From a virus (lineage: Duplodnaviria > Heunggongvirae > Uroviricota > Caudoviricetes), in the IMG/VR virus record IMGVR_UViG_2740892027_000001: DNA of 39,684 nucleotides; one strand, given 5' to 3'. Position 1 is the first letter of the stretch. Every line of letters starts with the position of its first letter. Positions 1,998-39,534 of the stretch are shown here, piece after piece. The position numbers were made by a program, and so were the translations under genes. The notes below the pieces were generated by a model. That model was not told where the DNA came from. It did no database searches and saw only the letters and a list, made by a program, of their open reading frames with translations.

Positions 1998-4460
1998 TCA
2001 ATTCCCTGTTAATTGCAAAACTTGCTCTTCCAGCTTTTTAACCCTGCGTCTCATCATCGCAGATTCCAGAATCAGAGCCTCTTCATAACGGATACCGTAA
2101 CATTCACCAGCCTCGACGGCTTCGCGTACCAGAACCTTTGTCTGTATAAGTGGGTAAACTCCTGCAGAATGCTCTTCTTCCGTCACATCCCTGTATTCTG
2201 CCGGGGTCTCATTCCACTTGTCATAACAGATAAATGCCAGTCGTGACACATCTATGCCTTCATTCTGAAATACACTGATAACATGCTGCGCAACTGCACC
2301 AAAGTGCCATCTTGCTCCGTCTTTACCTTTCACTTCGATCCTGTCAAGGTACTGGTATGAAACCCATTCCACTCTTTCCCATGCGTCCAGTATTTTCTCA
2401 TCAATAACCTCTGGAGCAGTCTTGAAACGCGCATCGGACAGCACCGTAAACGCTGACTGGGTAAATCCCCCCGACCATGCACGACCAGCCAACCCAAGAG
2501 AATAAGTATTCGTTGTCGATGGTGTCATGGCTGAATCAGAAAACTGTATATATTCTGAATTTCCAGTAGATATTCGAATATTTCCATTTATTAGCGACAT
2601 AGTGCCTTTAGTATTATCACTATTGAATAATTTCAATTGCGAACTTATACCGCCTCCCACAGCCAGAGATACATCGCCTTCAGCAAGCATTCTGAATTTA
2701 TCTGCAGAAACAAGCGTCTGGTTAGCAAGGTTAAAATATTTAACCCACCATTCAAAACGCCCTGACATAGTCCCAACGTACTGACCAAGCGCAGGGACGT
2801 GAACAACATTGCTATTTGTAGTGCCGTCTATACTGGAAATACCAGTCACCGCTGATGCAGAACTCAGAATATTATTTCTGTCACCCGGATGTTTAATTTC
2901 AACAAAGTTCCTGATACACCCTTCCTCGAAGGTAACCACGCCGGAAGAACTATACATGGGGAATATTGACGCATAATTACTGCGTGCAGCATCTAAGAAA
3001 CGAATGGTTGTAGATGTCTGCAGATCTCCTGATTCATTTTTCCCATCACACCCAGTCATTAGAATATTACTGGCAATATTATTATTTCCCTGAACGGTGA
3101 CGCCGTGCGCCTGCTTTGCGTCCGATTCAGAGTAATCAACCAGCACATCCGAAATCAGGTTACCAGTCCCCTTGCCAACAACTACTGCGGCGTATTTTGG
3201 GTTGTTAGCCATTACACTGCTAATGATATTATTCGTTGGGGCAGTTTCCGTCTCAGTTCCATTGTAAACAACGTGCTGACACTCTTCACCAATAACATTG
3301 CTGACAATGTTATATTTTGCTGCTGTTTTAAGTTCCACTGCACCAAACTGAGGATAATTTCTGGCTATCACACCATCAATTAGCGTATTTTGCGATGAAT
3401 CAAAAAGCACACAACCTGCTTTTTTATTATTTGCGAACCCTAAATACTCTCCTCTTATATCTCTAACAATGTAACCTGACGGAATACCATTATTCGGATA
3501 AGCGATCAAGCTAAATCCTGTTCCTCGCGTATTTGTAAATCTGATATTTTTAACCGATACATCATGGCCACCTGAAAATGACACCTGGTGTCCCTGCACA
3601 CTATCATCTGATTTATTTCCCATAATTGTTAGCGTACTAAGCATGCCACCATCGGGCATGTTAAAAACCAGATGATTACCATCTCTGTCATACTGTTTTA
3701 TCGTTCCCCCACCTGTTCCGTACAAGCCACAACGTGAAAGAGAAACTAAAGATGTATTGAATACCCCTTCCGGAACAAAAACACTGCTAAACGAATGTAA
3801 TGATTTTGTAAAAGCATCCTTGTTATCATTTAAGATTCCATTTTGAGCTCCAAAATCCTTAATGCTGACACCATCACGCATCTTATCCTGGAACGTTCTG
3901 TATACCGCTCCAGAACCATACTGAATAAACCAACCAAAACCACCAATAACTCCGGCGATTGCAGCATCGACATAATTACGCATTGAGCGATTATTTACAG
4001 CGTCCTGCTCAAGTGATGGATCGGCAAGGTTAGATATTCTGTTTTGCTTTGCATCGTAATATTTTGCAAGCAAAGATGGTTTCATCAATGCACGTCTGAA
4101 CCACCCAAAACATCGCTGGATCAGCATCGTCAGGTAGTCAAATGCATCCTCATGAACTTCGGGGAAAAATTTTCCCTGATTGCGAAGATCAGTCTCCTGC
4201 ACCACATCAAGCACACGCTCTATCGTGATTCGCCAGCCAGCAGCAAGCGGCGACGGAAGAACCACTGCACCGCCACTATAAGTTCCCGCCCCTGTTACCG
4301 TATAACCAGCATCCAGCACTAGTTTTGTAACGTTACCGTTAAGGTCAGACACCTGAACAACCAGGTCGGATTTTTTGAAAATACGGAAGGTATACGGAAA
4401 TGATGTCGTAACGCCGTTACCTGTGTATTCGTTGTGGTCAACTTCGGTTGAGACCGTCAT
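1998..4460 (-). CDS. Tailspike / tail fiber with beta-helix region and C-terminal intramolecular chaperone (peptidase S74-like) domain
   Basis: 820 aa; central Gly/Asn/Thr-rich repeats typical of right-handed beta-helix depolymerases; C-terminus has the LSDARFK autocleavage-type motif and chaperone-like tail; last structural gene before lysis genes. Confidence 0.8.
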   Translation of the reverse strand: MTVSTEVDHNEYTGNGVTTSFPYTFRIFKKSDLVVQVSDLNGNVTKLVLDAGYTVTGAGTYSGGAVVLPSPLAAGWRITIERVLDVVQETDLRNQGKFFPEVHEDAFDYLTMLIQRCFGWFRRALMKPSLLAKYYDAKQNRISNLADPSLEQDAVNNRSMRNYVDAAIAGVIGGFGWFIQYGSGAVYRTFQDKMRDGVSIKDFGAQNGILNDNKDAFTKSLHSFSSVFVPEGVFNTSLVSLSRCGLYGTGGGTIKQYDRDGNHLVFNMPDGGMLSTLTIMGNKSDDSVQGHQVSFSGGHDVSVKNIRFTNTRGTGFSLIAYPNNGIPSGYIVRDIRGEYLGFANNKKAGCVLFDSSQNTLIDGVIARNYPQFGAVELKTAAKYNIVSNVIGEECQHVVYNGTETETAPTNNIISSVMANNPKYAAVVVGKGTGNLISDVLVDYSESDAKQAHGVTVQGNNNIASNILMTGCDGKNESGDLQTSTTIRFLDAARSNYASIFPMYSSSGVVTFEEGCIRNFVEIKHPGDRNNILSSASAVTGISSIDGTTNSNVVHVPALGQYVGTMSGRFEWWVKYFNLANQTLVSADKFRMLAEGDVSLAVGGGISSQLKLFNSDNTKGTMSLINGNIRISTGNSEYIQFSDSAMTPSTTNTYSLGLAGRAWSGGFTQSAFTVLSDARFKTAPEVIDEKILDAWERVEWVSYQYLDRIEVKGKDGARWHFGAVAQHVISVFQNEGIDVSRLAFICYDKWNETPAEYRDVTEEEHSAGVYPLIQTKVLVREAVEAGECYGIRYEEALILESAMMRRRVKKLEEQVLQLTGN

Positions 4461-4564
4461 GTTAAATCTCCAGATAGTCGCAGCACCCGTTGCGCCGCAT
4501 ATCTGGTTATTCTATTACCCAAAAAACCATATATGGATAGAAAGACTGTGAATATGAATAGATA

Positions 4565-4579
4565 TTACCTTTCAGGTAA
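4565..4579. promoter_or_regulatory. Operator-like palindrome TTACC-tttca-GGTAA (full ATTACC-N5-GGTAAT)
   Basis: Perfect inverted repeat; member of a motif family found at least 14 times in the window, almost always intergenic. Confidence 0.55.
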
Positions 4580-4616
4580 TTTTCAAAACGTGCTGGATAG
4601 CAAACAAATTATTTGC

Positions 4617-4636
4617 TACTGTATAAATATACAGTT
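4617..4636 (+). promoter_or_regulatory. LexA (SOS) box TACTGTATAAATATACAGTT
   Basis: CTGT-N8-ACAG with AT-rich spacer, 15/16 match to CTGTATATATATACAG; ends 6 nt before ATG 4642; an AGCAAA-N7-TTTGCT inverted repeat (4599-4617) abuts it. Confidence 0.65.
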
Positions 4637-4641
4637 ATTGC

Positions 4642-4914
4642 ATGGAGAAGATTAAGATGCAGCAGTATCACTATCCACTGGAAGAGGGATTTACCGAAAG
4701 GATTCACACGCCGGGAGGCGTCAGGTCACTGGTGGAGGGATCGCACTTGATGAAATTACTCCGGGATCTCGATAAGGATGGATTTAATGTCGATGGCCCA
4801 CTTGCCGAACTGACTGCACTGATTAACTACGTCACCAGCTCACAGATGTCTATGCGGGATCTGCAAACACATCTCGACTATTGTGCCGAACAATTACGAA
4901 AACAAACCAGATAA
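4642..4914 (+). CDS. Small antirepressor-like protein (paralog of the C-terminal domain of the Bro-N antirepressor at 5230-5925)
   Basis: 90 aa; LMKLLRDLDKDGFNVDGPLAELTALINYV...LQTHLDYCAEQL aligns with LMNLLNQLQEDGHDVSGAAAELTTMFCYI...IQTHAEYINDK of the downstream antirepressor; LexA box at promoter. Alternative start ATG 4657 with GGAG Shine-Dalgarno. Confidence 0.55.
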   Translation: MEKIKMQQYHYPLEEGFTERIHTPGGVRSLVEGSHLMKLLRDLDKDGFNVDGPLAELTALINYVTSSQMSMRDLQTHLDYCAEQLRKQTR

Positions 4915-4945
4915 GGTTTGTAATTACCAAGTGGAGTGCTTATAT

Positions 4946-4960
4946 TTACCTTTGCGGTAA
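4946..4960. promoter_or_regulatory. Operator-like palindrome TTACC-tttgc-GGTAA (full ATTTACC-N5-GGTAAAT)
   Basis: Perfect inverted repeat between the two antirepressor-type genes. Confidence 0.5.
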
Positions 4961-5051
4961 ATTTACATCGCACTCCTCTTGTGCCATAGTAATCGGGCAC
5001 TGGCAAAATCCAGTGCCGGGATTGGCGTCCCGGATTACTAAAAGGCGCATT

Positions 5052-5071
5052 CACCGCGCAAGCGGTTTTTT
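5052..5071 (+). terminator. Putative intrinsic terminator (ACCGC-gcaa-GCGGT + T7)
   Basis: Short GC stem followed by TTTTTTT; preceded by two further hairpins at 4996-5033. Confidence 0.4.
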
Positions 5072-5229
5072 TATGCGTATAGCACGGCCACATTCGTATT
5101 ATGGTGGGCTGTGTGGGGGCACCGAAAGGTGCGCCGGGTCCTTTTAGCCGGTTACGCCAACCCTGCACAGTTCACCACCAACCGATTGGCGTCGGTAGTG
5201 GTGATTAACCAGACTAAAAGGTAACCACT

Positions 5230-5925
5230 ATGACAGCTACAAAAAGCACGTCCATTTTTTCTTTCGAATCTCAAGCCGATATACGGGTAATCGTCATTAA
5301 TGGTGAGCCATGGTTTATCGCTTCAGATGTTTGTCGGGCTATAGGCATAGCAAACCATCGAGATGCTGTTCGAAAACTTGATGATGATGAGAAGGGCGTC
5401 GCTTCAACCGACACCCCTGGCGGTGAGCAAGAATCGATCATTATCTCCGAGTCAGGCCTCTACACACTGATCCTCCGCTGCCGCGATGCGGTGACACCAG
5501 GCACTATCCCCTACCGCTTTCGCAAATGGGTTACAGGTGAGGTTCTTCCTCAGATCCGCCGCACCGGAAGTTACATTAAAAACTCGCTCCCGCAGGAAGA
5601 ACGCATAAAGATGGTTGCCGACCAGGTAGCCAACGCCACGGCGTCAGCAGTAATGCAGGCGATGAAGATAGAGAACAAAACCTACAGCGCCCCGCTGAAG
5701 CCCGGCTACCGCAGCCTGATTCACTCGCCGTCTGGTGTTCTCGGCCTGACGGAAAACTCACTGCTGATGAATCTGCTGAACCAGTTACAGGAAGACGGGC
5801 ACGACGTATCGGGCGCGGCGGCGGAGCTGACCACCATGTTTTGCTACATCGTTGGTGTGAGCAAGTGCCTGCGTGATATCCAGACGCACGCGGAGTACAT
5901 CAACGACAAGGCTGGGTTCTTCTGA
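5230..5925 (+). CDS. Antirepressor with N-terminal Bro-N domain
   Basis: 231 aa; N-terminus SIFSFESQADIRVIVINGEPWFIASDVCRAIGI matches the Bro-N signature; C-terminal domain shared with ORF 4642-4914. Confidence 0.75.
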   Translation: MTATKSTSIFSFESQADIRVIVINGEPWFIASDVCRAIGIANHRDAVRKLDDDEKGVASTDTPGGEQESIIISESGLYTLILRCRDAVTPGTIPYRFRKWVTGEVLPQIRRTGSYIKNSLPQEERIKMVADQVANATASAVMQAMKIENKTYSAPLKPGYRSLIHSPSGVLGLTENSLLMNLLNQLQEDGHDVSGAAAELTTMFCYIVGVSKCLRDIQTHAEYINDKAGFF

Positions 5926-5991
5926 CGGGCGGCGGCACAGGGACGTGCCTTTAAAATAATCATTGGCGATGTGATGTAGATTCGCGTAATA

Positions 5992-6006
5992 TTACCTTAC
6001 GGGTAA
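5992..6006. promoter_or_regulatory. Operator-like palindrome TTACC-ttacg-GGTAA
   Basis: Perfect inverted repeat 39 bp upstream of ATG 6045; the 17-mer ATTACCTTACGGGTAA also occurs at 33330-33345. Confidence 0.55.
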
Positions 6007-6774: not shown

Positions 6775-6786
6775 GTGACATGTCAC
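6775..6786. repeat. 12-bp perfect palindrome GTGACATGTCAC (copy 1 of 3)
   Basis: Identical 12-mer at 24324-24335 and 26589-26600; overlaps the TGA stop of ORF 6783-7079. Confidence 0.7.
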
Positions 6787-21070: not shown

Positions 21071-21363
21071 TCCTGTTCACTGGCCTCTTTGGCCATCTTC
21101 AAATACTGTTCAGGGCAATGCGCCATAACGCGCTGAAACAGTTCCAGCGCCAGATTGCGTTGCCCCTCATTAAATGCCATTGCCATAGCGTCCATCGGTG
21201 AGATAGCGGAAAACACACGGCCTTTCTCCAGCACCGACCAGACAACGCGACGCCCCTGTTCGCTGCTCATGACAAAGCGAATGTCATCAATTTCACGCTG
21301 CGCCATGTCACGTTGCTTACGGGCGTTTTCTTCTTTCAGTTGATCGTCTTCGTAATCTGTCAT
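21067..21363 (-). CDS. Hypothetical protein between portal and scaffold
   Basis: 98 aa, 4-nt overlaps with both neighbours. Confidence 0.5.
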   Translation of the reverse strand: MTDYEDDQLKEENARKQRDMAQREIDDIRFVMSSEQGRRVVWSVLEKGRVFSAISPMDAMAMAFNEGQRNLALELFQRVMAHCPEQYLKMAKEASEQE

Positions 21364-23039
21364 TGTGATTGCCCACCCTGACCACTAACTGCATTCGCCA
21401 TAGCTGACAAAACACTCGGATCCGAAGTTTTAGCTTCGCTTAGCGTCTTGGCACCCTGTGCCGCCGCCATCCCCATCGCCATCATTTGTTGCTGCTGTTG
21501 CTGCTGTGCCCGTTGCTGGCGAGCATGCTCAACCTGTTCCTGCGGAACAATGACGGTTGGAGACACTCCGGACATATCAGCGAATGCATCGATCGCCTGA
21601 TCAACGTTGAGTTTGTCGAGAGCTTCTGGTTTCGCTTGCGCAAGTTGACCAATGAAGTTAACCGTGGACGCCAGACTGGACAGGCCGATAGACTTCTGCG
21701 CCTGAGCCATGACGGAAATGTATTCGACCTTCAGGGGCATGCCTTCCATCGCGTCAGGCGGTGGCGGCAGCATGTTTTTACGCACCATCATAGAGAAAGC
21801 GCGGTCAATGAGAGGATTAAGACATTCGTCGTTCAGACGCTCCAGAACCGGCCCCAACATCAGAAGTTTTTCTTCTTTCATTTCGATCACCGCTTCAACA
21901 GGCATCGAGCGGGTATTGATGTTCTGCAACATCATGAACAGATCGACAAAGTAGGCGCTGTTAATGATTTGGCGAGTGTCCTGAATGTCTGCCACCAGAT
22001 CTGCTGTACTGGGGTTAACCAGATAAGCAGGCCTGAAACCATCCTGACCAGTAATCTGATCGATATACGTGATGTCGCCAGGAAGAAGGGAGGCGCGCTG
22101 ATTCTTGAGGGAAGTCGGAGCAACCATCGGCGGATTGGTGGCTTTATCAATCAACTGCGACTTGCGCTTCTGGAGAAGCTGCAATGCCTTAACAGGTCCA
22201 AGCGCCAGCATACCCGGGCATGATGATCCATAAACATCTTCGCCGTTAACTTCCCAGCGCGGAGCCATAATTGGAAACTCATCGAATCCGGACTCACGCA
22301 ACAACTTGTCGTTATCGCCGCCAACCTCGTAATAAACCGATTTGAATGGCTTGTTCTTGCTATCCAGCTTCGATGTATCGCGGTCAATGTTCGGGTAAAC
22401 CGAATGCATCACTTCGATCCACTTCTCGTAGGTGCCGCTTTCCCACATGCTTTTTACGGATTCGCTGACGTTATTTAGCCCGAACTCCTGAACAAGCTGA
22501 CGAACAGTCATAGAGAACTTGCGAAAACAGGTGTCAACACTGCCACGAGGTGAGTTAGCCAGGTAGTAACTGCCTATCGGGAATGGCATTGTGCGAATGA
22601 TGTCCTCGTCATCCTCCAGCACTGCCATTGCACCAGTGCTGTATGTGCCGAGGCTTCCGTATAACTGCGGAAGAGACTGGTAGAGATTCGACTTATTGAA
22701 CATATCGTTCATGCGGTTCTGCACCGCCTCAAGCCACAACTTAACAGGGCCATAATCCATCATTTCAGGATCTGGCGTAGCCAGGCGAAACCACGGACGC
22801 GCGGGGCTTGTGATGCCTGACATCATGCCGCTGGCGAGAGTGCGCGCCGCCATAGTCCCGGTCGAATCAATAATGCGTGTATTGCGTCGATCGTTACGGT
22901 TGACCTCTGAAGTCAGAAAGCGGGAACCACGCGGGTTGATGTAATCACTCAACTCGCGCCAGTGCGGCTCGAACGACTGACGCTCGCTTTCAAGTTGTGC
23001 GAACTGTTTGTTCAATCGCTCTTTAGTTGTTTCCGCCAT
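21360..23039 (-). CDS. Portal (head-to-tail connector) protein
   Basis: 559 aa; first large gene after terminase in morphogenesis operon. Confidence 0.7.
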   Translation of the reverse strand: MAETTKERLNKQFAQLESERQSFEPHWRELSDYINPRGSRFLTSEVNRNDRRNTRIIDSTGTMAARTLASGMMSGITSPARPWFRLATPDPEMMDYGPVKLWLEAVQNRMNDMFNKSNLYQSLPQLYGSLGTYSTGAMAVLEDDEDIIRTMPFPIGSYYLANSPRGSVDTCFRKFSMTVRQLVQEFGLNNVSESVKSMWESGTYEKWIEVMHSVYPNIDRDTSKLDSKNKPFKSVYYEVGGDNDKLLRESGFDEFPIMAPRWEVNGEDVYGSSCPGMLALGPVKALQLLQKRKSQLIDKATNPPMVAPTSLKNQRASLLPGDITYIDQITGQDGFRPAYLVNPSTADLVADIQDTRQIINSAYFVDLFMMLQNINTRSMPVEAVIEMKEEKLLMLGPVLERLNDECLNPLIDRAFSMMVRKNMLPPPPDAMEGMPLKVEYISVMAQAQKSIGLSSLASTVNFIGQLAQAKPEALDKLNVDQAIDAFADMSGVSPTVIVPQEQVEHARQQRAQQQQQQQMMAMGMAAAQGAKTLSEAKTSDPSVLSAMANAVSGQGGQSQ

Positions 23040-23053
23040 TTCAATGACTCCGG

Positions 23054-23260
23054 TTACTGACCAAGCAGCGTTTTACCGCTGGTATTAGCGGTTGATGTGT
23101 CGCCCTGAGAACCAGTAAGCAGCGTAGAACTACGACCAGCAGCAGCGCGACGGCGACGTGTTTCTTCGTCGCGGGCATCAACAACGGCGGCATCCTGCTC
23201 CTGTGGTGCTGCCTGAACTTCTGGTGTTGCAGGCACTGATGGTGAGCTACCCATGCACAT
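23054..23260 (-). CDS. Small hypothetical protein upstream of portal
   Basis: 68 aa, GGAG about 10 nt upstream of ATG; a competing overlapping frame (23041-23280) looks less protein-like. Confidence 0.3.
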   Translation of the reverse strand: MCMGSSPSVPATPEVQAAPQEQDAAVVDARDEETRRRRAAAGRSSTLLTGSQGDTSTANTSGKTLLGQ

Positions 23261-23350
23261 ATCAATGACTCCGTACGCAATTAAATTATTACCAATTTAA
23301 CCACATATGATTTATTTATCGTAGGTAGTTGACATTTAACGCACGAATTA

Positions 23351-23365
23351 TTACCTTTAAGGTAA
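23351..23365. promoter_or_regulatory. Operator-like palindrome TTACC-tttaa-GGTAA
   Basis: Perfect inverted repeat in 400-bp non-coding region between portal gene and tRNA; TTGACA at 23330-23335 nearby. Confidence 0.5.
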
Positions 23366-23687
23366 CCAAAGAGCTCATTCCGGTTACTAACCTGACTGGC
23401 TTGTCGTTAAATTGAACAGGTGGAGTGAGCTTTTATTTTGAGCAGTACGGCGTATGGCACATGCGACGATAGCGGTCTGGATACGTTTAAGGGGCACCCT
23501 CCCTTGCTCGGGCAAACGAACCAGGTAGCCGGAATGTGCAAGTCGAGCGGTTTTATTCCGCGCACGGGGATACACCATCCCGGCGATTCGGTGTGACGCC
23601 TCGGAAGAGACGAGGGTACAACGATGAGAGCATTTATGGAGCCGCGACAAAGTGTGGCGCCTTAACAGGCTAAGTGCTCTCAGCGTT

Positions 23688-23764
23688 GTGGCATTAGCTC
23701 AGTCGGACAGAGCAACCGCCTTCTAAGCGGTTGGTCGCAGGTTCGAATCCTGCATGCCACGCCA
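23688..23764 (+). tRNA. tRNA-Arg (anticodon UCU), phage-encoded
   Basis: 77 nt cloverleaf folded by hand: 7-bp acceptor stem GTGGCAT/ATGCCAC, D-arm GCTC/GAGC, anticodon stem ACCGC/GCGGT with loop CUUCUAA, T-arm GCAGG-TTCGAAT-CCTGC, 3' GCCA. Confidence 0.85.
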
Positions 23765-23807
23765 GAATCACGCCTAAGGACCGTGATGCCAGAAGTTCCA
23801 GGTGCTT

Positions 23808-23850
23808 GGCGGTGATGGTTTCCCTTGAAGGACTATCACCGCCCTTTTTA
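23808..23850 (+). terminator. Intrinsic terminator downstream of tRNA
   Basis: GGCGGTGAT...ATCACCGCC stem followed by CTTTTTA. Confidence 0.5.
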
Positions 23851-23927
23851 CAGCAGGACGCCATTGCGATGACTTCATGCTGTAAACCCGTACAGCCACG
23901 GAAGGCATAACTCATTGCTTCCAGTTC

Positions 23928-23951
23928 GCCCGGTTCGCCGGGCATTTTTTT
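23928..23951 (+). terminator. Terminator-like hairpin (GCCCGG-ttcg-CCGGGC + ATTTTTTT) just upstream of ORF 23963
   Basis: Perfect 6-bp GC stem plus T-run; ends 12 nt before ATG and overlaps the AAGGTGAG Shine-Dalgarno. Confidence 0.45.
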
Positions 23952-23962
23952 AAGGTGAGATT

Positions 23963-24319
23963 ATGAACGACCAGCAAATCGAAAAAGAAATCGTTGAGAA
24001 AGGCAAAACCGCTCCGCGAGTTACGCCTCAATATATCGAAAGCATCATTCTTGAAGAGCATTTCTTTACTGCTTATGACGGCATTCGTGCTGCCAATATG
24101 GGCGTTGGCGATTCATGGACAGCGCATAAATCTACAGACCTCCTGACTTTCTGCGTACTGGTGCTGAAGAATGGCTTCACCGTCACCGGAGAAAGCGCCT
24201 GTGCAAGCACGGAAAACTTTGATGCAGAAATTGGTCGGAAGATTGCCCGGCAGAATGCTGTAAACAAAATCTGGATGCTCGAAGGTTACTTGCTGAAGCA
24301 GAAGCTAAGCGAGCAATAA
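23963..24319 (+). CDS. Hypothetical protein (accessory gene in tRNA island)
   Basis: 118 aa, strong Shine-Dalgarno; plus-strand gene inside minus-strand late operon; family not recognised with certainty. Confidence 0.6.
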   Translation: MNDQQIEKEIVEKGKTAPRVTPQYIESIILEEHFFTAYDGIRAANMGVGDSWTAHKSTDLLTFCVLVLKNGFTVTGESACASTENFDAEIGRKIARQNAVNKIWMLEGYLLKQKLSEQ

Positions 24320-24323
24320 CACC

Positions 24324-24335
24324 GTGACATGTCAC
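24324..24335. repeat. 12-bp perfect palindrome GTGACATGTCAC (copy 2 of 3)
   Basis: Five nt after the stop of ORF 23963-24319 and immediately before terminator 24340-24366. Confidence 0.7.
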
Positions 24336-24339
24336 AAAC

Positions 24340-24366
24340 AGCCAGCCTATGAGCTGGCTTTGTTTT
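24340..24366 (+). terminator. Intrinsic terminator (AGCCAGC-ctatga-GCTGGCT + TTGTTTT)
   Basis: Hairpin plus T-run after the accessory ORF. Confidence 0.6.
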
Positions 24367-24409
24367 ATCCTCACCAGAGGATATCAACGACATTATCCCC
24401 ACCAGCGGA

Positions 24410-25885
24410 TTAAGCATAAGGGTCATAATCCGTTATGGCCCTTCCCTGCTGGCTTTGCTGTCCTGGTATATTTATGCGTTTCGAGACCGGGAAAGCAAAC
24501 GTCAGCAATAGCGCATCGCCTTTCCCCGGCGAACGCCCAAGTCGCTCCTTGATATCTTCCTTCGGTTCGATAACGATTTTACCGTCCACGCGAACTTTGT
24601 ACTCTGCCGTCGACAGGTCGTCCGCTGTTTCCTGGTCATCCAGCATGCCGCCGAGCCTCAGCCATGTCTTGCATGAGTTGAACATCTCCCCACGCTTGTT
24701 GAGCATCTGCGGGTCAGTAGACGCGCCACCGAACGGAACAAGTTGCCATGTACGACCCCAGCCGTCACCGATTGACTTCAGACCAGTTCCGTAACCGAAG
24801 TCGATGAACACTGCGTCAGCCTGGTACTGGTCTTCAAAGTCAGCGATACGCTTCGCCATAATCAGATCGTCAGTGGTCTTGTTGCCGGTCCACAGCACCT
24901 TACTATGCAGCCCCTGCCGCAGGTATATCACAGCATCATCAACACCGGAGTATGCCGGGTCAACGCCGATTATCACCGGAGCATGTGCCACCTGCGCAGC
25001 GGTTATCACCCGTTTCATTGCCTCGTCAGTAAGTCCGGTAGGGATAAACTGCAATTCAGATGCATCAGGGAATATGCCGCGCACACGGATTTTAACGAAG
25101 TCACTGTCTTCCCCGTAGTCATCAACCCATTTCTGCAACTGCTGTTTGTTGGTGCCTTCCACCGTCCGGCTGTCAATCTGCGCAGTTTTCCAGCGGTGTT
25201 TATACTTGCGGAAACATTCACGGAATCGCCCGGTATTACGCGTCGGGTTTCCGAACGCCACCCAAATAATCTCAGTGTCTTCGTCCGTAAGCGCACCCTC
25301 GGCAACTTCCCACACCAGATCCGCAATGTTCGACGCTTCATCGAATACCACGATAATGCGTTTGCGCTCGTTGTGTAGTCCTGCGAATGCCTCAGTGTTG
25401 TGCTCAGACCAGGGGATTGCGTCAGCTCGCCACCGCTTGTCGTGTCCAGGATCATTGCTGTACATCGCGGTAGCGGTGCAGGTGAACCAGTCTTTCGTGA
25501 TAGCAAGGTTCGACCACTTGATAATTTCAGGCCAGGTCTTCGTTCGTAGTTGGTTGTCGGTGTTGGCGGTCACCACGACCTTACAATCCTCGCAAGTGGA
25601 CATGCCCCAGTTGATCAGCATTGAGATGAATGCGGATTTACCAATACCGTGACCAGAAGCACGTGCCAGCATAAGCGGCTGATATCGCGTCTCTGGATTC
25701 TGCAGGTGATCACGTATCTCTCGGAACGCATCGGCCTGCCACTGACGTGGACCGGTGGCATGTGCCAGTTCAGTACCCTCTTCCCCCCACGGGAACGCAT
25801 AGAGGGCATAGCCAAGCGGATCGTGAGTGAACCCTGCAATATCCTCGATTAACTGCTCTTCAGGAGATAACGCTGTATCTGTCAC
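24410..25885 (-). CDS. Terminase large subunit
   Basis: 491 aa; P-loop-like SGHGIGKS near the N-terminus, acidic nuclease-domain residues C-terminal; 4-nt overlap with small-subunit gene. Confidence 0.85.
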   Translation of the reverse strand: MTDTALSPEEQLIEDIAGFTHDPLGYALYAFPWGEEGTELAHATGPRQWQADAFREIRDHLQNPETRYQPLMLARASGHGIGKSAFISMLINWGMSTCEDCKVVVTANTDNQLRTKTWPEIIKWSNLAITKDWFTCTATAMYSNDPGHDKRWRADAIPWSEHNTEAFAGLHNERKRIIVVFDEASNIADLVWEVAEGALTDEDTEIIWVAFGNPTRNTGRFRECFRKYKHRWKTAQIDSRTVEGTNKQQLQKWVDDYGEDSDFVKIRVRGIFPDASELQFIPTGLTDEAMKRVITAAQVAHAPVIIGVDPAYSGVDDAVIYLRQGLHSKVLWTGNKTTDDLIMAKRIADFEDQYQADAVFIDFGYGTGLKSIGDGWGRTWQLVPFGGASTDPQMLNKRGEMFNSCKTWLRLGGMLDDQETADDLSTAEYKVRVDGKIVIEPKEDIKERLGRSPGKGDALLLTFAFPVSKRINIPGQQSQQGRAITDYDPYA

Positions 25886-26478
25886 TGATTGCCATCCTGA
25901 CGTTCTTTCAGTCTCTTCCTGGCTGCCGCTATGCGATCAGCAATTGTCACATTCACATTAACATCCAGGCGTTCTTTGAATGCGTTGACGTCGACGTGCT
26001 TACCAATCAGTTCGAGGTTCTTCACCTTGTCAGGCCATTTAATTTTTTTGAGGATTGTCTCTATCGAATCCTCGTTCATGTTCATGATGGTCGATGACAG
26101 ATCAAAGCCGCTAAGCGTAGTGCGCCAGATTTTCGGCCACTCTCGGATTGGCTTAAGGCTCCCATCGTCGTTGAGGATGTCGATCACGTCCATCTGGTCG
26201 ATCTCCACCAGACGCATGAGAACGTAATCAGCACTGACGCGCATTCGTTTGTTGCGCTCCTCCATCAGCTCGGCAATCCGTTTTTGAATGCGTTCATCGC
26301 GCATCATGACACTGGCTTTAACTGCTGCTGTATTTGGGGAGAATCCTGCGTTAATCGCTGCCTGAGTCTGGTTTTCAGGCGTTTTGATGTATGACTGGCA
26401 ATAAGCCTCCTGCATTGCTGTTAGTGGCTTAAATTGCGTTGATTTGCGTTTATAGGTTTTAGGTTCAGCAGGCATCAT
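25882..26478 (-). CDS. Terminase small subunit
   Basis: About 198 aa from ATG 26478 (GGTGG Shine-Dalgarno); the track ORF extends to a TTG at 26556, but that extension contains an intrinsic terminator, so the shorter start is preferred. Confidence 0.65.
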   Translation of the reverse strand: MMPAEPKTYKRKSTQFKPLTAMQEAYCQSYIKTPENQTQAAINAGFSPNTAAVKASVMMRDERIQKRIAELMEERNKRMRVSADYVLMRLVEIDQMDVIDILNDDGSLKPIREWPKIWRTTLSGFDLSSTIMNMNEDSIETILKKIKWPDKVKNLELIGKHVDVNAFKERLDVNVNVTIADRIAAARKRLKERQDGNQ

Positions 26479-26520
26479 AACCACCGTGGTAATAGTTACC
26501 GTTGTGGTAATAGTACCATG

Positions 26521-26547
26521 CAAAATAAAGCCGCCATAGTTGGCGGC
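26521..26547 (-). terminator. Intrinsic terminator upstream of terminase genes (GCCGCCA-acta-TGGCGGC + TTTATTTTG)
   Basis: Strong minus-strand hairpin plus T-run between the early-right genes and terminase small subunit start. Confidence 0.55.
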
Positions 26548-26579
26548 AGTATTCAAAACACATCAAATTCATCATGCAT

Positions 26580-26608
26580 AATCTACTCGTGACATGTCAC
26601 ACTATTAA
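26580..26608 (-). promoter_or_regulatory. Candidate late promoter (TTAATA-N17-TAGATT) with palindrome in spacer
   Basis: Weak sigma70-like hexamers at 17-bp spacing, read on the minus strand; the GTGACATGTCAC palindrome fills the spacer; terminator lies 30-60 nt downstream. Confidence 0.3.
26589..26600. repeat. 12-bp perfect palindrome GTGACATGTCAC (copy 3 of 3)
   Basis: Overlaps the TGA stop of ORF 26597-26938, about 40 nt upstream (minus-strand sense) of terminator 26521-26547. Confidence 0.7.
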
Positions 26609-30207: not shown

Positions 30208-30222
30208 TTACCCCTGAGGTAA
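30208..30222. promoter_or_regulatory. Operator-like palindrome TTACC-cctga-GGTAA
   Basis: Perfect inverted repeat 4 nt upstream of the start codon of ORF 29860-30204. Confidence 0.5.
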
Positions 30223-30269
30223 TTAAAAACCACATAAGACACGAAATCAATAGATCTTAGAACATTTTA

Positions 30270-30284
30270 TTACCTAGCAGGTAA
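30270..30284. promoter_or_regulatory. Operator-like palindrome TTACC-tagca-GGTAA (full ATTACC-N5-GGTAAT)
   Basis: Perfect 6-bp arms; in the intergenic region downstream of the P-like gene. Confidence 0.5.
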
Positions 30285-32570: not shown

Positions 32571-32633
32571 TCACCCATAAGGTAACAAAAATCAAGGATA
32601 GTTACCTATGGGGTGCATTTACCTGTTGGGTAA
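32571..32633. promoter_or_regulatory. Immunity-region operator cluster: three sites between divergent cro-like and repressor genes
   Basis: TCACC-cataa-GGTAA (32571-85), TTACC-tatgg-GGTGC (32602-16) and perfect TTACC-tgttg-GGTAA (32619-33); a -35/-10-like TTGATT-N17-GAATAT for the cro-like gene overlaps the first site. Confidence 0.6.
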
Positions 32634-33330: not shown

Positions 33331-33345
33331 TTACCTTACGGGTAA
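33331..33345. promoter_or_regulatory. Operator-like palindrome TTACC-ttacg-GGTAA
   Basis: Perfect site immediately after the repressor terminator; same 17-mer as at 5991-6006. Confidence 0.55.
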
Positions 33346-33364
33346 TTTTTTTAACTCATATCTA

Positions 33365-33407
33365 TTGACACCAAACCAAATAAGCATAATTATTACCTCA
33401 ACGGTAA
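33365..33407 (+). promoter_or_regulatory. Candidate early-left promoter (consensus -35 TTGACA at 33365-33370) overlapped by operator TTACC-tcaac-GGTAA (33393-33407)
   Basis: Perfect TTGACA; AT-rich CATAATTATT in the -10 region with ambiguous spacing; operator overlaps the -10/+1 region; plus-strand operon starts downstream. Confidence 0.4.
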
Positions 33408-39519: not shown

Positions 39520-39534
39520 ATACCTTTAAGGTAA
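39520..39534. promoter_or_regulatory. Operator-like site ATACC-tttaa-GGTAA upstream of int
   Basis: One mismatch to the TTACC-N5-GGTAA consensus; 43 bp upstream of the integrase start codon. Confidence 0.45.

Follow-up and report, generated by a model that had tools for sequence, protein, structure and literature searches.

The DNA analyzed here is a stretch of 39,684 nucleotides (nt), below called the window, which corresponds to IMG/VR virus record IMGVR_UViG_2740892027_000001 and whose region of interest is 97% identical to Escherichia phage phiV10, of the genus Uetakevirus (epsilon15-like phages). A plus-strand island is inserted in this phage between the gene for TerL and those for a 68-amino acid (aa) protein and the portal, and the constant, defining part of the island was found to be a conserved structured leader RNA of ~245 nt (positions 23447-23690, plus strand; 225 bits with the covariance model described below). 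The RNA is real and selected for its structure, it is always the 5' leader of a repressor-controlled early operon, and it appears to represent an undescribed family. We tentatively propose, while stopping short of calling it probable, that it is a cis-acting antiterminator like the put RNAs of phage HK022, driving a terminator-insulated slot for anti-defence cargo. An earlier reading made from the letters alone (the original prediction) had listed an operator-like site, a GC-rich non-coding stretch, a tRNA gene, terminators, a 118-aa gene and a palindrome-terminator module, and all of these components were found; of its interpretation, the tRNA, the AGA codon bias and a conditional read-through into the gene were borne out, while the nature of the non-coding stretch had been missed and a local attenuator is unlikely. 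The tRNA, the terminators and the gene, a member of the Acb4 family, are each ordinary or previously known, and the part that appears to be new is the RNA family.

The fold was derived by comparison of homologues. RNAalifold, run on 11 diverse copies, predicted 48 base pairs, 14 of them with compensatory changes, and a covariance model made from those copies was then applied to representative loci, of which 57 yielded full-length copies at 99-237 bits. The refined structure consists of 49 pairs in seven helices, i.e., P1 (23448-23456/23460-23468), P2 (23476-23480/23521-23525), P3 (23542-23544/23582-23584), P3a (23567-23570/23578-23581), a pseudoknot that joins CACC in the P3a loop to a downstream GGUG (23573-23576/23590-23593), P4 (23599-23603/23611-23615, with the loop GAAGAGA) and P5 (23617-23636/23671-23690), a long interrupted helix of 18 bp with a variable tip; all lie on the plus strand, as does an invariant 19-nt stretch, GGTAGCCGGAATGTGCAAG, at 23524-23542. 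In the family alignment 95.7% of cells are paired under this structure compared to 31-46% when the partners are slid, and compensatory change on both sides is seen in 32 of the 49 pairs against 11-14 in the slid controls, with none of 500 shuffles equalling the observed values. P2, with the strands TCYGG and CCRGG, covaries from U-A to C-G, from G-C to A-U and from GG/CC to AC/GU, and inspection of the alignment indicates that the pseudoknot does likewise, CACC/GGUG becoming AACC/GGUU in nine sequences; since neither belonged to the search model, yet both covary, they provide unbiased support. The P2 pairing replaces one returned by RNAalifold, of GCGGTCYGG with CCGGAATGTGC, which was dropped as it breaks in variants carrying GGTCCAC. 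Several pairs are G-U in most sequences and would be A-C mismatches on the opposite strand, and these many conserved G-U pairs thus tie the fold to the plus strand, i.e., the transcribed one.

The original prediction had described this part of the island as a 300-bp GC-rich non-coding stretch. Its GC content (57.7% versus 49.3% for the window) and its lack of a conserved reading frame agree with that description, although a structured RNA, and not a spacer, occupies it. Hypothetical open reading frames (ORFs) have been annotated across the RNA in some records, and in the window an 87-aa ORF on the minus strand (23387-23650) spans much of it; one may therefore ask whether the conserved element is a minus-strand protein-coding gene, such as gp37 of mEp460, or an element acting as DNA, such as a recombination or replication site, with no RNA involved. 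This is extremely improbable: even the best frame is open in only 14 of 56 homologues, 25 of 57 lack an open frame altogether, the indels fall in helix tips, the conserved G-U pairs would be mismatched on the other strand, and the element's orientation always matches that of the downstream operon. A protein-coding reading of this stretch was consequently rejected, and the ORFs annotated across the RNA in mEp460 (gp37) and mEp390 (gp36) look spurious. A further minus-strand ORF of 83 aa (23694-23945; hypothetical protein p04 of phiV10, and annotated likewise in ZX5) runs antisense across the tRNA-Arg gene and both of the terminators that follow it, and is for that reason almost certainly mis-annotated.

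The RNA is widespread among temperate phages of the Enterobacterales. A sensitive BLAST search with positions 23380-23690 matched 86 phage records, including phages outside Uetakevirus at ~70-83% identity. These comprise lambdoid phages (cdtI, mEp460, mEp390, Ayreon, 2H10, twelve Stx2c-converting phages and Stx2a phages), as well as P1, P7 and further P1-like phages, phages of Klebsiella, Enterobacter and Salmonella, and one phage reported on Stenotrophomonas. The RNA is present in 1839 of 5426 complete E. coli genomes, at a site where RefSeq annotates nothing, and the exact 19-mer GGTAGCCGGAATGTGCAAG occurs in at least 120 IMG/VR contigs. When one genome per species was searched for this 19-mer, 23 true matches were obtained, 22 of them in Enterobacterales (including Klebsiella, Citrobacter, Kosakonia, Enterobacter, Kluyvera, Buttiauxella and Erwinia dacicola) and the 23rd on a 1.7-kb contig binned as Bacillota; other non-enterobacterial matches (Burkholderia, Bacteroidia and others) failed the covariance model and were set aside as chance matches. 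One IMG/VR contig (L028) carries two full-length copies, at 3938-4160 and 4734-4965, both on the minus strand and ~800 nt apart. In the type phage epsilon15 itself (L132, 1800-1916) a deletion extends from the middle of P2 through the tRNA and takes in the 5' half of the first terminator.

The family appears to be undescribed: Rfam 15 and RefSeq annotation lack it, as does the literature in so far as it could be searched. The Rfam covariance-model scan proposed for this stretch in the original prediction was carried out with cmscan against Rfam 15, and returned at E<=1 nothing in the window region other than the tRNA, with no match over the leader RNA; in four other loci (E<=0.1) the hits were to tRNA, C4, isrK and, below threshold, STnc100, all outside the leader RNA. 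In mEp460 (L005) the C4 antisense RNA (83.6 bits) adjoins isrK (67 bits) at 206-394 of the minus strand, in the antirepressor region. A description of the leader RNA was not found in the literature by way of sequence strings or under put/HK639, epsilon15, AgvB or the Pas small RNAs; the Pas RNAs and STnc100 are different elements, situated in the late region.

The orientation of the RNA always agrees with that of the downstream operon. In 32 of 47 cases the upstream ORF on the same strand encodes a CI/LexA-like repressor (S24 GxSM motif), and these repressors, which form at least eight sequence clusters (immunity types), end 106-260 nt upstream of the RNA. In the lambdoid phages, operators and PL-like promoters (OL/PL) lie between the repressor gene and the RNA, i.e., the RNA takes the nutL/putL position, which has long been of interest; in Uetakeviruses the phage's own operator precedes it; and in P1 it stands between tRNA-Ile2 and ban in the ban operon, under the control of C1, while in P1-like elements it follows tRNA-Ile2 by 8 nt. 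Two IMG/VR phages (L040 and L048) share with HK022 the OL/PL operators (~90% over 55 nt) and the cI-cro region, and bear the leader RNA at the exact site of HK022 putL. In mEp460, whose record has a Q-like gene and none annotated as N, the RNA stands at the front of a leftward operon of 11 genes and 5 kb. The first downstream ORFs fall into 41 clusters among 68, so that the RNA has no conserved protein partner. This absence, taken with the invariant loops and junctions across unrelated phages, points to a conserved host target.

In the window, the operator is a palindrome, TTACCTTTAAGGTAA, at 23351-23365 (strand-neutral). It is one of 14 copies of TTACC-N5-GGTAA (with at most one mismatch), compared to 0.52 expected, and none of 100 shuffles attained 14. 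The record of epsilon15 labels the homologous operator as a repressor-binding site, with an IHF site adjoining. The operator-like site of the original prediction is confirmed. The other 13 copies lie at 4333-6006, 26478-26510, 30208-30284, 32571-32633, 33331-33407 and 39520-39534, often in pairs 50-60 bp apart. The 14 sites resemble the regulon of a single phage regulator, probably the repressor with two helix-turn-helix motifs. A putative early promoter (23329-23357, plus strand) combines a -35 of TTGACA (23329-23334), a 17-nt spacer and a -10 of TACCTT (23352-23357) that overlaps the operator. Epsilon15, despite a diverged spacer sequence, retains the two hexamers at a distance of 17 nt; the -10 matches the consensus at three of six positions and the whole stays below the threshold of a consensus scanner, and the promoter is treated here as putative because of that weak -10.

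Downstream of the RNA, in both major contexts (Uetakevirus and lambdoid), a strong intrinsic terminator is located 115-190 nt away and ahead of the first ORF, with no gene or recognisable promoter seen in between. In mEp460 it is formed by GGCGGTACCAG...CTGGTACCGC followed by TCTTTTT (-20.7 kcal/mol). Its equivalent in the window is the intrinsic terminator T1 (23808-23851, plus strand), with a 14-bp stem (23808-23843) of ~-22 kcal/mol followed by CTTTTTAC; L012, L036, L027 and L009, all close relatives, have this terminator at an identical offset. A second intrinsic terminator, T2 (23928-23951, plus strand), consists of GCCCGG-TTCG-CCGGGC (23928-23943) and ATTTTTTT, with a run of seven Ts, and is kept in 18 related islands of the Uetakevirus type, where the stems GCCCGG/CCGGGC, GCCCAC/GTGGGC and GCCCGC/GCGGGC represent compensatory changes. 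The third, T3 (24340-24368, plus strand; hairpin 24340-24359 followed by TTGTTTTAT), lies between the convergent Acb4-like and TerL genes, and is recorded in phiV10 as a rho-independent terminator on the TerL strand. The terminators of the original prediction are thus all accounted for, although the count alone would not be significant, with four terminator-like hits in the region versus 2.5 +/- 1.5 in shuffles.

T2 and the Shine-Dalgarno sequence behind it form a conserved junction ahead of differing cargo genes in the 18 islands. As had been predicted, 12 nt separate the end of the T-run of T2 (23951) from the ATG (23963); the terminator does not, however, overlap the Shine-Dalgarno sequence (AAGGTGA, 23952-23958) but abuts it. 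The attenuation-type or conditional expression suggested from this arrangement holds in so far as a conserved terminator in front of a ribosome-binding site implies conditional read-through, but no alternative structure was found near T2. A local attenuator is therefore an unlikely cause of read-through, and the arrangement is better accounted for by the upstream RNA exerting control from a distance.

The gene behind this junction (23963-24319, plus strand), called accessory in the original prediction, encodes a 118-aa protein that matches Pfam family PF13876 (Phage_gp49_66) over profile positions 1-82 of 82 (E 5.8e-34; 116.9 bits, cut-off 27) and the structure of SPO1 Acb4 (PDB 9e4w) across its ENF..EIGR core (E 0.0033). 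In the paper that defined Acb4, PF13876 was equated with the Acb4 family of ~1,300 cyclic-dinucleotide sponges, and all eight homologues assayed there bound 3'3'-cGAMP. Two of the four alignable ligand contacts of SPO1 are kept in the 118-aa protein (F62 and I66), and the equivalents of Y57 and T70 are not conserved. In Klebsiella phage ST512-KPC3phi13.3 (L009) the same slot holds a Tad2-like gene (3011-3532; PF11195, E 4e-26), while unrelated small genes fill it in other relatives. The presence of Acb4-like, Tad2-like and other small genes in one place marks the island as a cargo slot for anti-defence genes, and the slot seems to gather nucleotide-sponge genes in particular. No promoter of their own is visible for the cargo genes, which, lying behind T2, consequently depend on read-through.

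The reading which we tentatively favour joins these features as follows. The putative operator-controlled promoter would transcribe the ~245-nt leader RNA, which would act in cis on the polymerase that is transcribing it, whether alone or helped by host factors of the Nus type, and render that polymerase resistant to termination in the manner of the HK022 put RNAs. Only transcripts begun at the repressor-controlled promoter would then pass T1 and T2 into the cargo gene, which would otherwise be insulated, and in lambdoid phages the same RNA would take the polymerase past the PL-proximal terminator. The cargo would here be a putative cyclic-nucleotide sponge of the Acb4 family, and in relatives a Tad2-like or other small gene, while the tRNA-Arg(UCU) would be an optional passenger, freed from the same transcript by RNase P and supplementing the decoding of AGA. 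Such a put-like function would explain where the RNA lies, why terminators follow it with no promoter in between, why it has no protein partner, how it can stand in for putL and how lambdoid operons manage without N.

Several observations weigh against it. An nhmmer search of HK022 with the family profile revealed no sequence similarity to put, the sole match being a 16-nt chance match inside nun, and homology to putL/putR was accordingly rejected. The RNA, at ~245 nt and with seven helices including a pseudoknot, is far larger than put, with ~70 nt and two stems; each phage has one copy, with no equivalent in the PR operon; and the P1 copy lies 2.3 kb from Pban and is without P5. Epsilon15 has lost most of the RNA, but keeps T2 and an intact Acb4-like gene behind it, which indicates that the RNA is dispensable or T2 leaky. 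A terminator-resistant polymerase would also pass the short T3 into antisense TerL. Terminators, furthermore, are modestly (1.5-fold) enriched downstream of the RNA with a lenient finder (1.22 versus 0.79 per 600 nt, the antisense strand having 0.83), and with a strict finder the figures are 0.61 versus 0.18 per 600 nt, but the antisense strand is equally rich. Simple enrichment was therefore dropped as an argument, and, because the counts are modestly enriched, the argument from terminators is built on the position and strength of specific conserved ones. Antitermination itself is proposed from sequence and by analogy with put.

A wider proposal, which we entertain with some reserve as a possibility, is that the pseudoknotted RNA belongs to an undescribed class of phage RNA acting directly on a conserved host machine, most simply RNA polymerase, without a phage protein, and that lambda-, P1- and epsilon15-like temperate phages of Enterobacterales would have it in common as a portable device that licenses the transcription of immediate-early genes and of genes against host defences. 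The RNA may in addition require tRNA-type processing, which would account for the fused tRNAs and tRNA remnants described next.

The tRNA of the island is a well-formed tRNA-Arg(UCU) with an encoded CCA (23688-23764, plus strand), called by ARAGORN with a TCT anticodon and scoring 73.3 bits against the Rfam tRNA model (RF00005; gathering score 29), in line with the original prediction. It is optional cargo: a tRNA-Arg abuts the leader RNA in eight of 57 representative loci, most copies have none, and epsilon15 lacks it. In the window, nt 1-3 of the tRNA double as the outermost 3' nt of P5. Since the outer three base pairs of P5 use these nt, P5 and the acceptor stem are mutually exclusive until RNase P cleavage, which, given the overlap, would set the 3' end of the RNA. 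In tRNA-less lambdoid copies (L017, 3' of 3974-4221 on the minus strand; L005, 2746-2872), tRNA-like debris was observed in register with the tRNA of the window; an acceptor-like GUGGUGA can be recognised in it along with a D-arm and an anticodon arm (CUUUUAA), and the T arm is missing. This in-register debris suggests an ancestral fusion of leader RNA and tRNA. The notion that a tRNA or tRNA-like structure always follows the RNA was nevertheless abandoned, as a test for an acceptor-like closing helix performed no better than shuffles and tRNA-less copies do not fold as cloverleaves; remnants are confined to some copies.

These junctions bear on an alternative in which the RNA is a stand-alone, trans-acting non-coding RNA, co-transcribed with the tRNA and ending at T1, which, early in infection, would bind a conserved host factor or keep it sequestered, such as a component of defence, RNA decay or translation. 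It would be released by tRNA-processing enzymes, with RNase P acting on its 3' side here and, in P1, the 3' processing of a tRNA freeing its 5' side. The abutting tRNA-Arg genes, the tRNA-Ile2 8 nt upstream in P1-like elements, the in-register remnants after some lambdoid copies, the strong terminator within 190 nt downstream, the compact pseudoknotted fold with its invariant loops and the adjoining anti-defence cargo are all in its favour. We nonetheless consider it rather unlikely, because the lambdoid RNA lies between PL and a 5-kb operon without another early promoter, so that transcripts must run on; moreover, most copies have no flanking tRNA, and no candidate target was found.

The 3' module of the RNA, a short hairpin plus P5 with the consensus CACAACAGGUAAGAGCA ... 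UGCUCUUUCCGUUGUG around a variable insert, raises two further alternatives. According to the first, which we regard as distinctly unlikely, the RNA is mainly a processing and stability module in which P5 would be an RNase III site and, together with RNase P, the early transcript would be cut into tRNA and mRNA protected by a hairpin at its 5' or 3' end. P5, as an 18-bp interrupted helix overlapping the 5' end of the tRNA, resembles an RNase III substrate, and P4-P5 modules also occur alone downstream of full copies, with three extra ones flanking tRNAs in the P1 ban operon. The annotators of epsilon15 did place an RNase III site in this intergenic region, but mostly upstream of the homologous part, and such a module would leave unexplained the single-copy, highly conserved 5' domain (P1-P3 and the pseudoknot), with its 19-nt invariant stretch across phage families. 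The extra P5-type modules of P1 (L004, AF234173) are at 541-622, 980-1067 and 1464-1561, flanking tRNA-Asn and tRNA-Thr, and one of them has a T-arm-like sequence, GAGGGTTCGAATCCCTAC, in its insert.

The second alternative views the 3' module as nut-like, the P4 hairpin resembling boxB and the P5 3' strand, followed by GUUGUGG, resembling boxA; the module would recruit NusB/NusE, and possibly an unrecognised N-like protein, as in the lambda nut site or the rrn leader. Most copies have UGCUCUY in the 3' strand of P5; 10 of 75 match the core of rrn boxA, UGCUCUUU, exactly, and 17 of 75 read UGCUCUCA. The order of hairpin, boxA-like and GU-rich elements mirrors rrn boxB-boxA-boxC, and the P4 loop GAAGAGA starts like the lambda nutL boxB loop. 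In a lambda-type nut site, a single-stranded boxA (YGCUCUUUA) adjoins a boxB hairpin to which N binds. The boxA-like stretch of the leader RNA is, however, base-paired and covarying (variants include UGCGCUU and CGCCGUU), which leaves no fixed single-stranded site, and no N gene is annotated or conserved nearby, so that this alternative is judged quite improbable.

Codon use fits a role of the tRNA in supplementing the decoding of AGA-rich phage genes. Codons were counted in 50 crude ORFs of the window and, for the host, in 35 core genes of one O157:H7 chromosome, and AGA and AGG were found at 6.8 and 4.1 per 1000 codons in the phage compared to 1.09 and 0.47 in the host sample; in this comparison, which the original prediction had proposed, the phage is thus well above the host. 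Most such codons fall in the gene for the tail spike (13 AGA) and in those for large virion proteins; the genes for the capsid, portal and TerL have no AGA. The tRNA may benefit the genes that are rich in AGA.

Between the Acb4-like gene and T3 is a strand-neutral 12-bp palindrome, GTGACATGTCAC (24324-24335), of which the window has three exact copies (6775-6786, 24324-24335 and 26589-26600) versus 0.11 expected; the predicted palindrome-terminator module is therefore present and its palindrome recurrent. One of the copies lies ~33 nt upstream of the TerS start. The neighbouring genes are all on the minus strand, i.e., those for TerS (25882-26556), TerL (24410-25885), the 68-aa protein (23054-23260) and the portal (21360-23039).

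Very few examples of elongation control by RNA only are known, e.g., put in a handful of HK022-like phages; EAR in Bacillus is another. The leader RNA takes the position of put, is far larger and has an unrelated structure. Roughly one in three complete E. coli genomes carries it, Stx-converting prophages among the carriers, and P1-type plasmid prophages have it as well. If it is indeed an antiterminator, RNA-based antitermination would be common and not exotic, and the expression of the leftward early operon in N-less lambdoid phages would be explained. The platform, conserved as it is, from which anti-defence genes such as those for Acb4-like and Tad2-like sponges are expressed should aid the finding of new ones, the mis-annotated ORFs phiV10p04, mEp460 gp37 and mEp390 gp36 are flagged, and the alignment, covariance model and structure provide a concrete family for Rfam and for experiments.

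Among known systems, HK022 putL/putR is the closest: in both cases a cis-encoded RNA opens a repressor-controlled early operon without a dedicated protein partner and with terminators downstream, and the leader RNA, just downstream of an early promoter, takes the putL position beside near-identical PL operators. The leader RNA differs from put in having no sequence similarity to it, in being single-copy without a putR-like partner and in occurring also outside lambdoid phages (P1, Uetakevirus), and antitermination by it is proposed by analogy. With lambda nutL/N and rrn boxB-boxA-boxC it shares the location in the PL leader just after cI as well as the hairpin, UGCUCUY and GU-rich tail, whereas its boxA-like stretch is paired and variable, an N gene is absent from annotation, and a large 5' domain is added. 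P5, as a long interrupted helix recurring between units of an early transcript, is reminiscent of the RNase III sites of phage T7 and of the lambda N leader; the pseudoknotted 5' domain, in contrast, has no counterpart there, and cleavage at P5 is a prediction. Phage-borne tRNAs for rare codons are well known, e.g., from the argN, argO and ileZ genes of Stx phages, and the tRNA of the window resembles such tRNAs in its standard anticodon loop (CUUCUAA) and in a phage use of AGA several times that of the host, but is fused to the 3' end of the leader RNA in an early operator-controlled unit and not in the late region. Finally, phage moron and anti-defence islands likewise offer a variable cargo slot bounded by terminators, whereas here the cargo has no promoter of its own and is served by a shared platform of promoter, RNA, T1, T2 and Shine-Dalgarno sequence.

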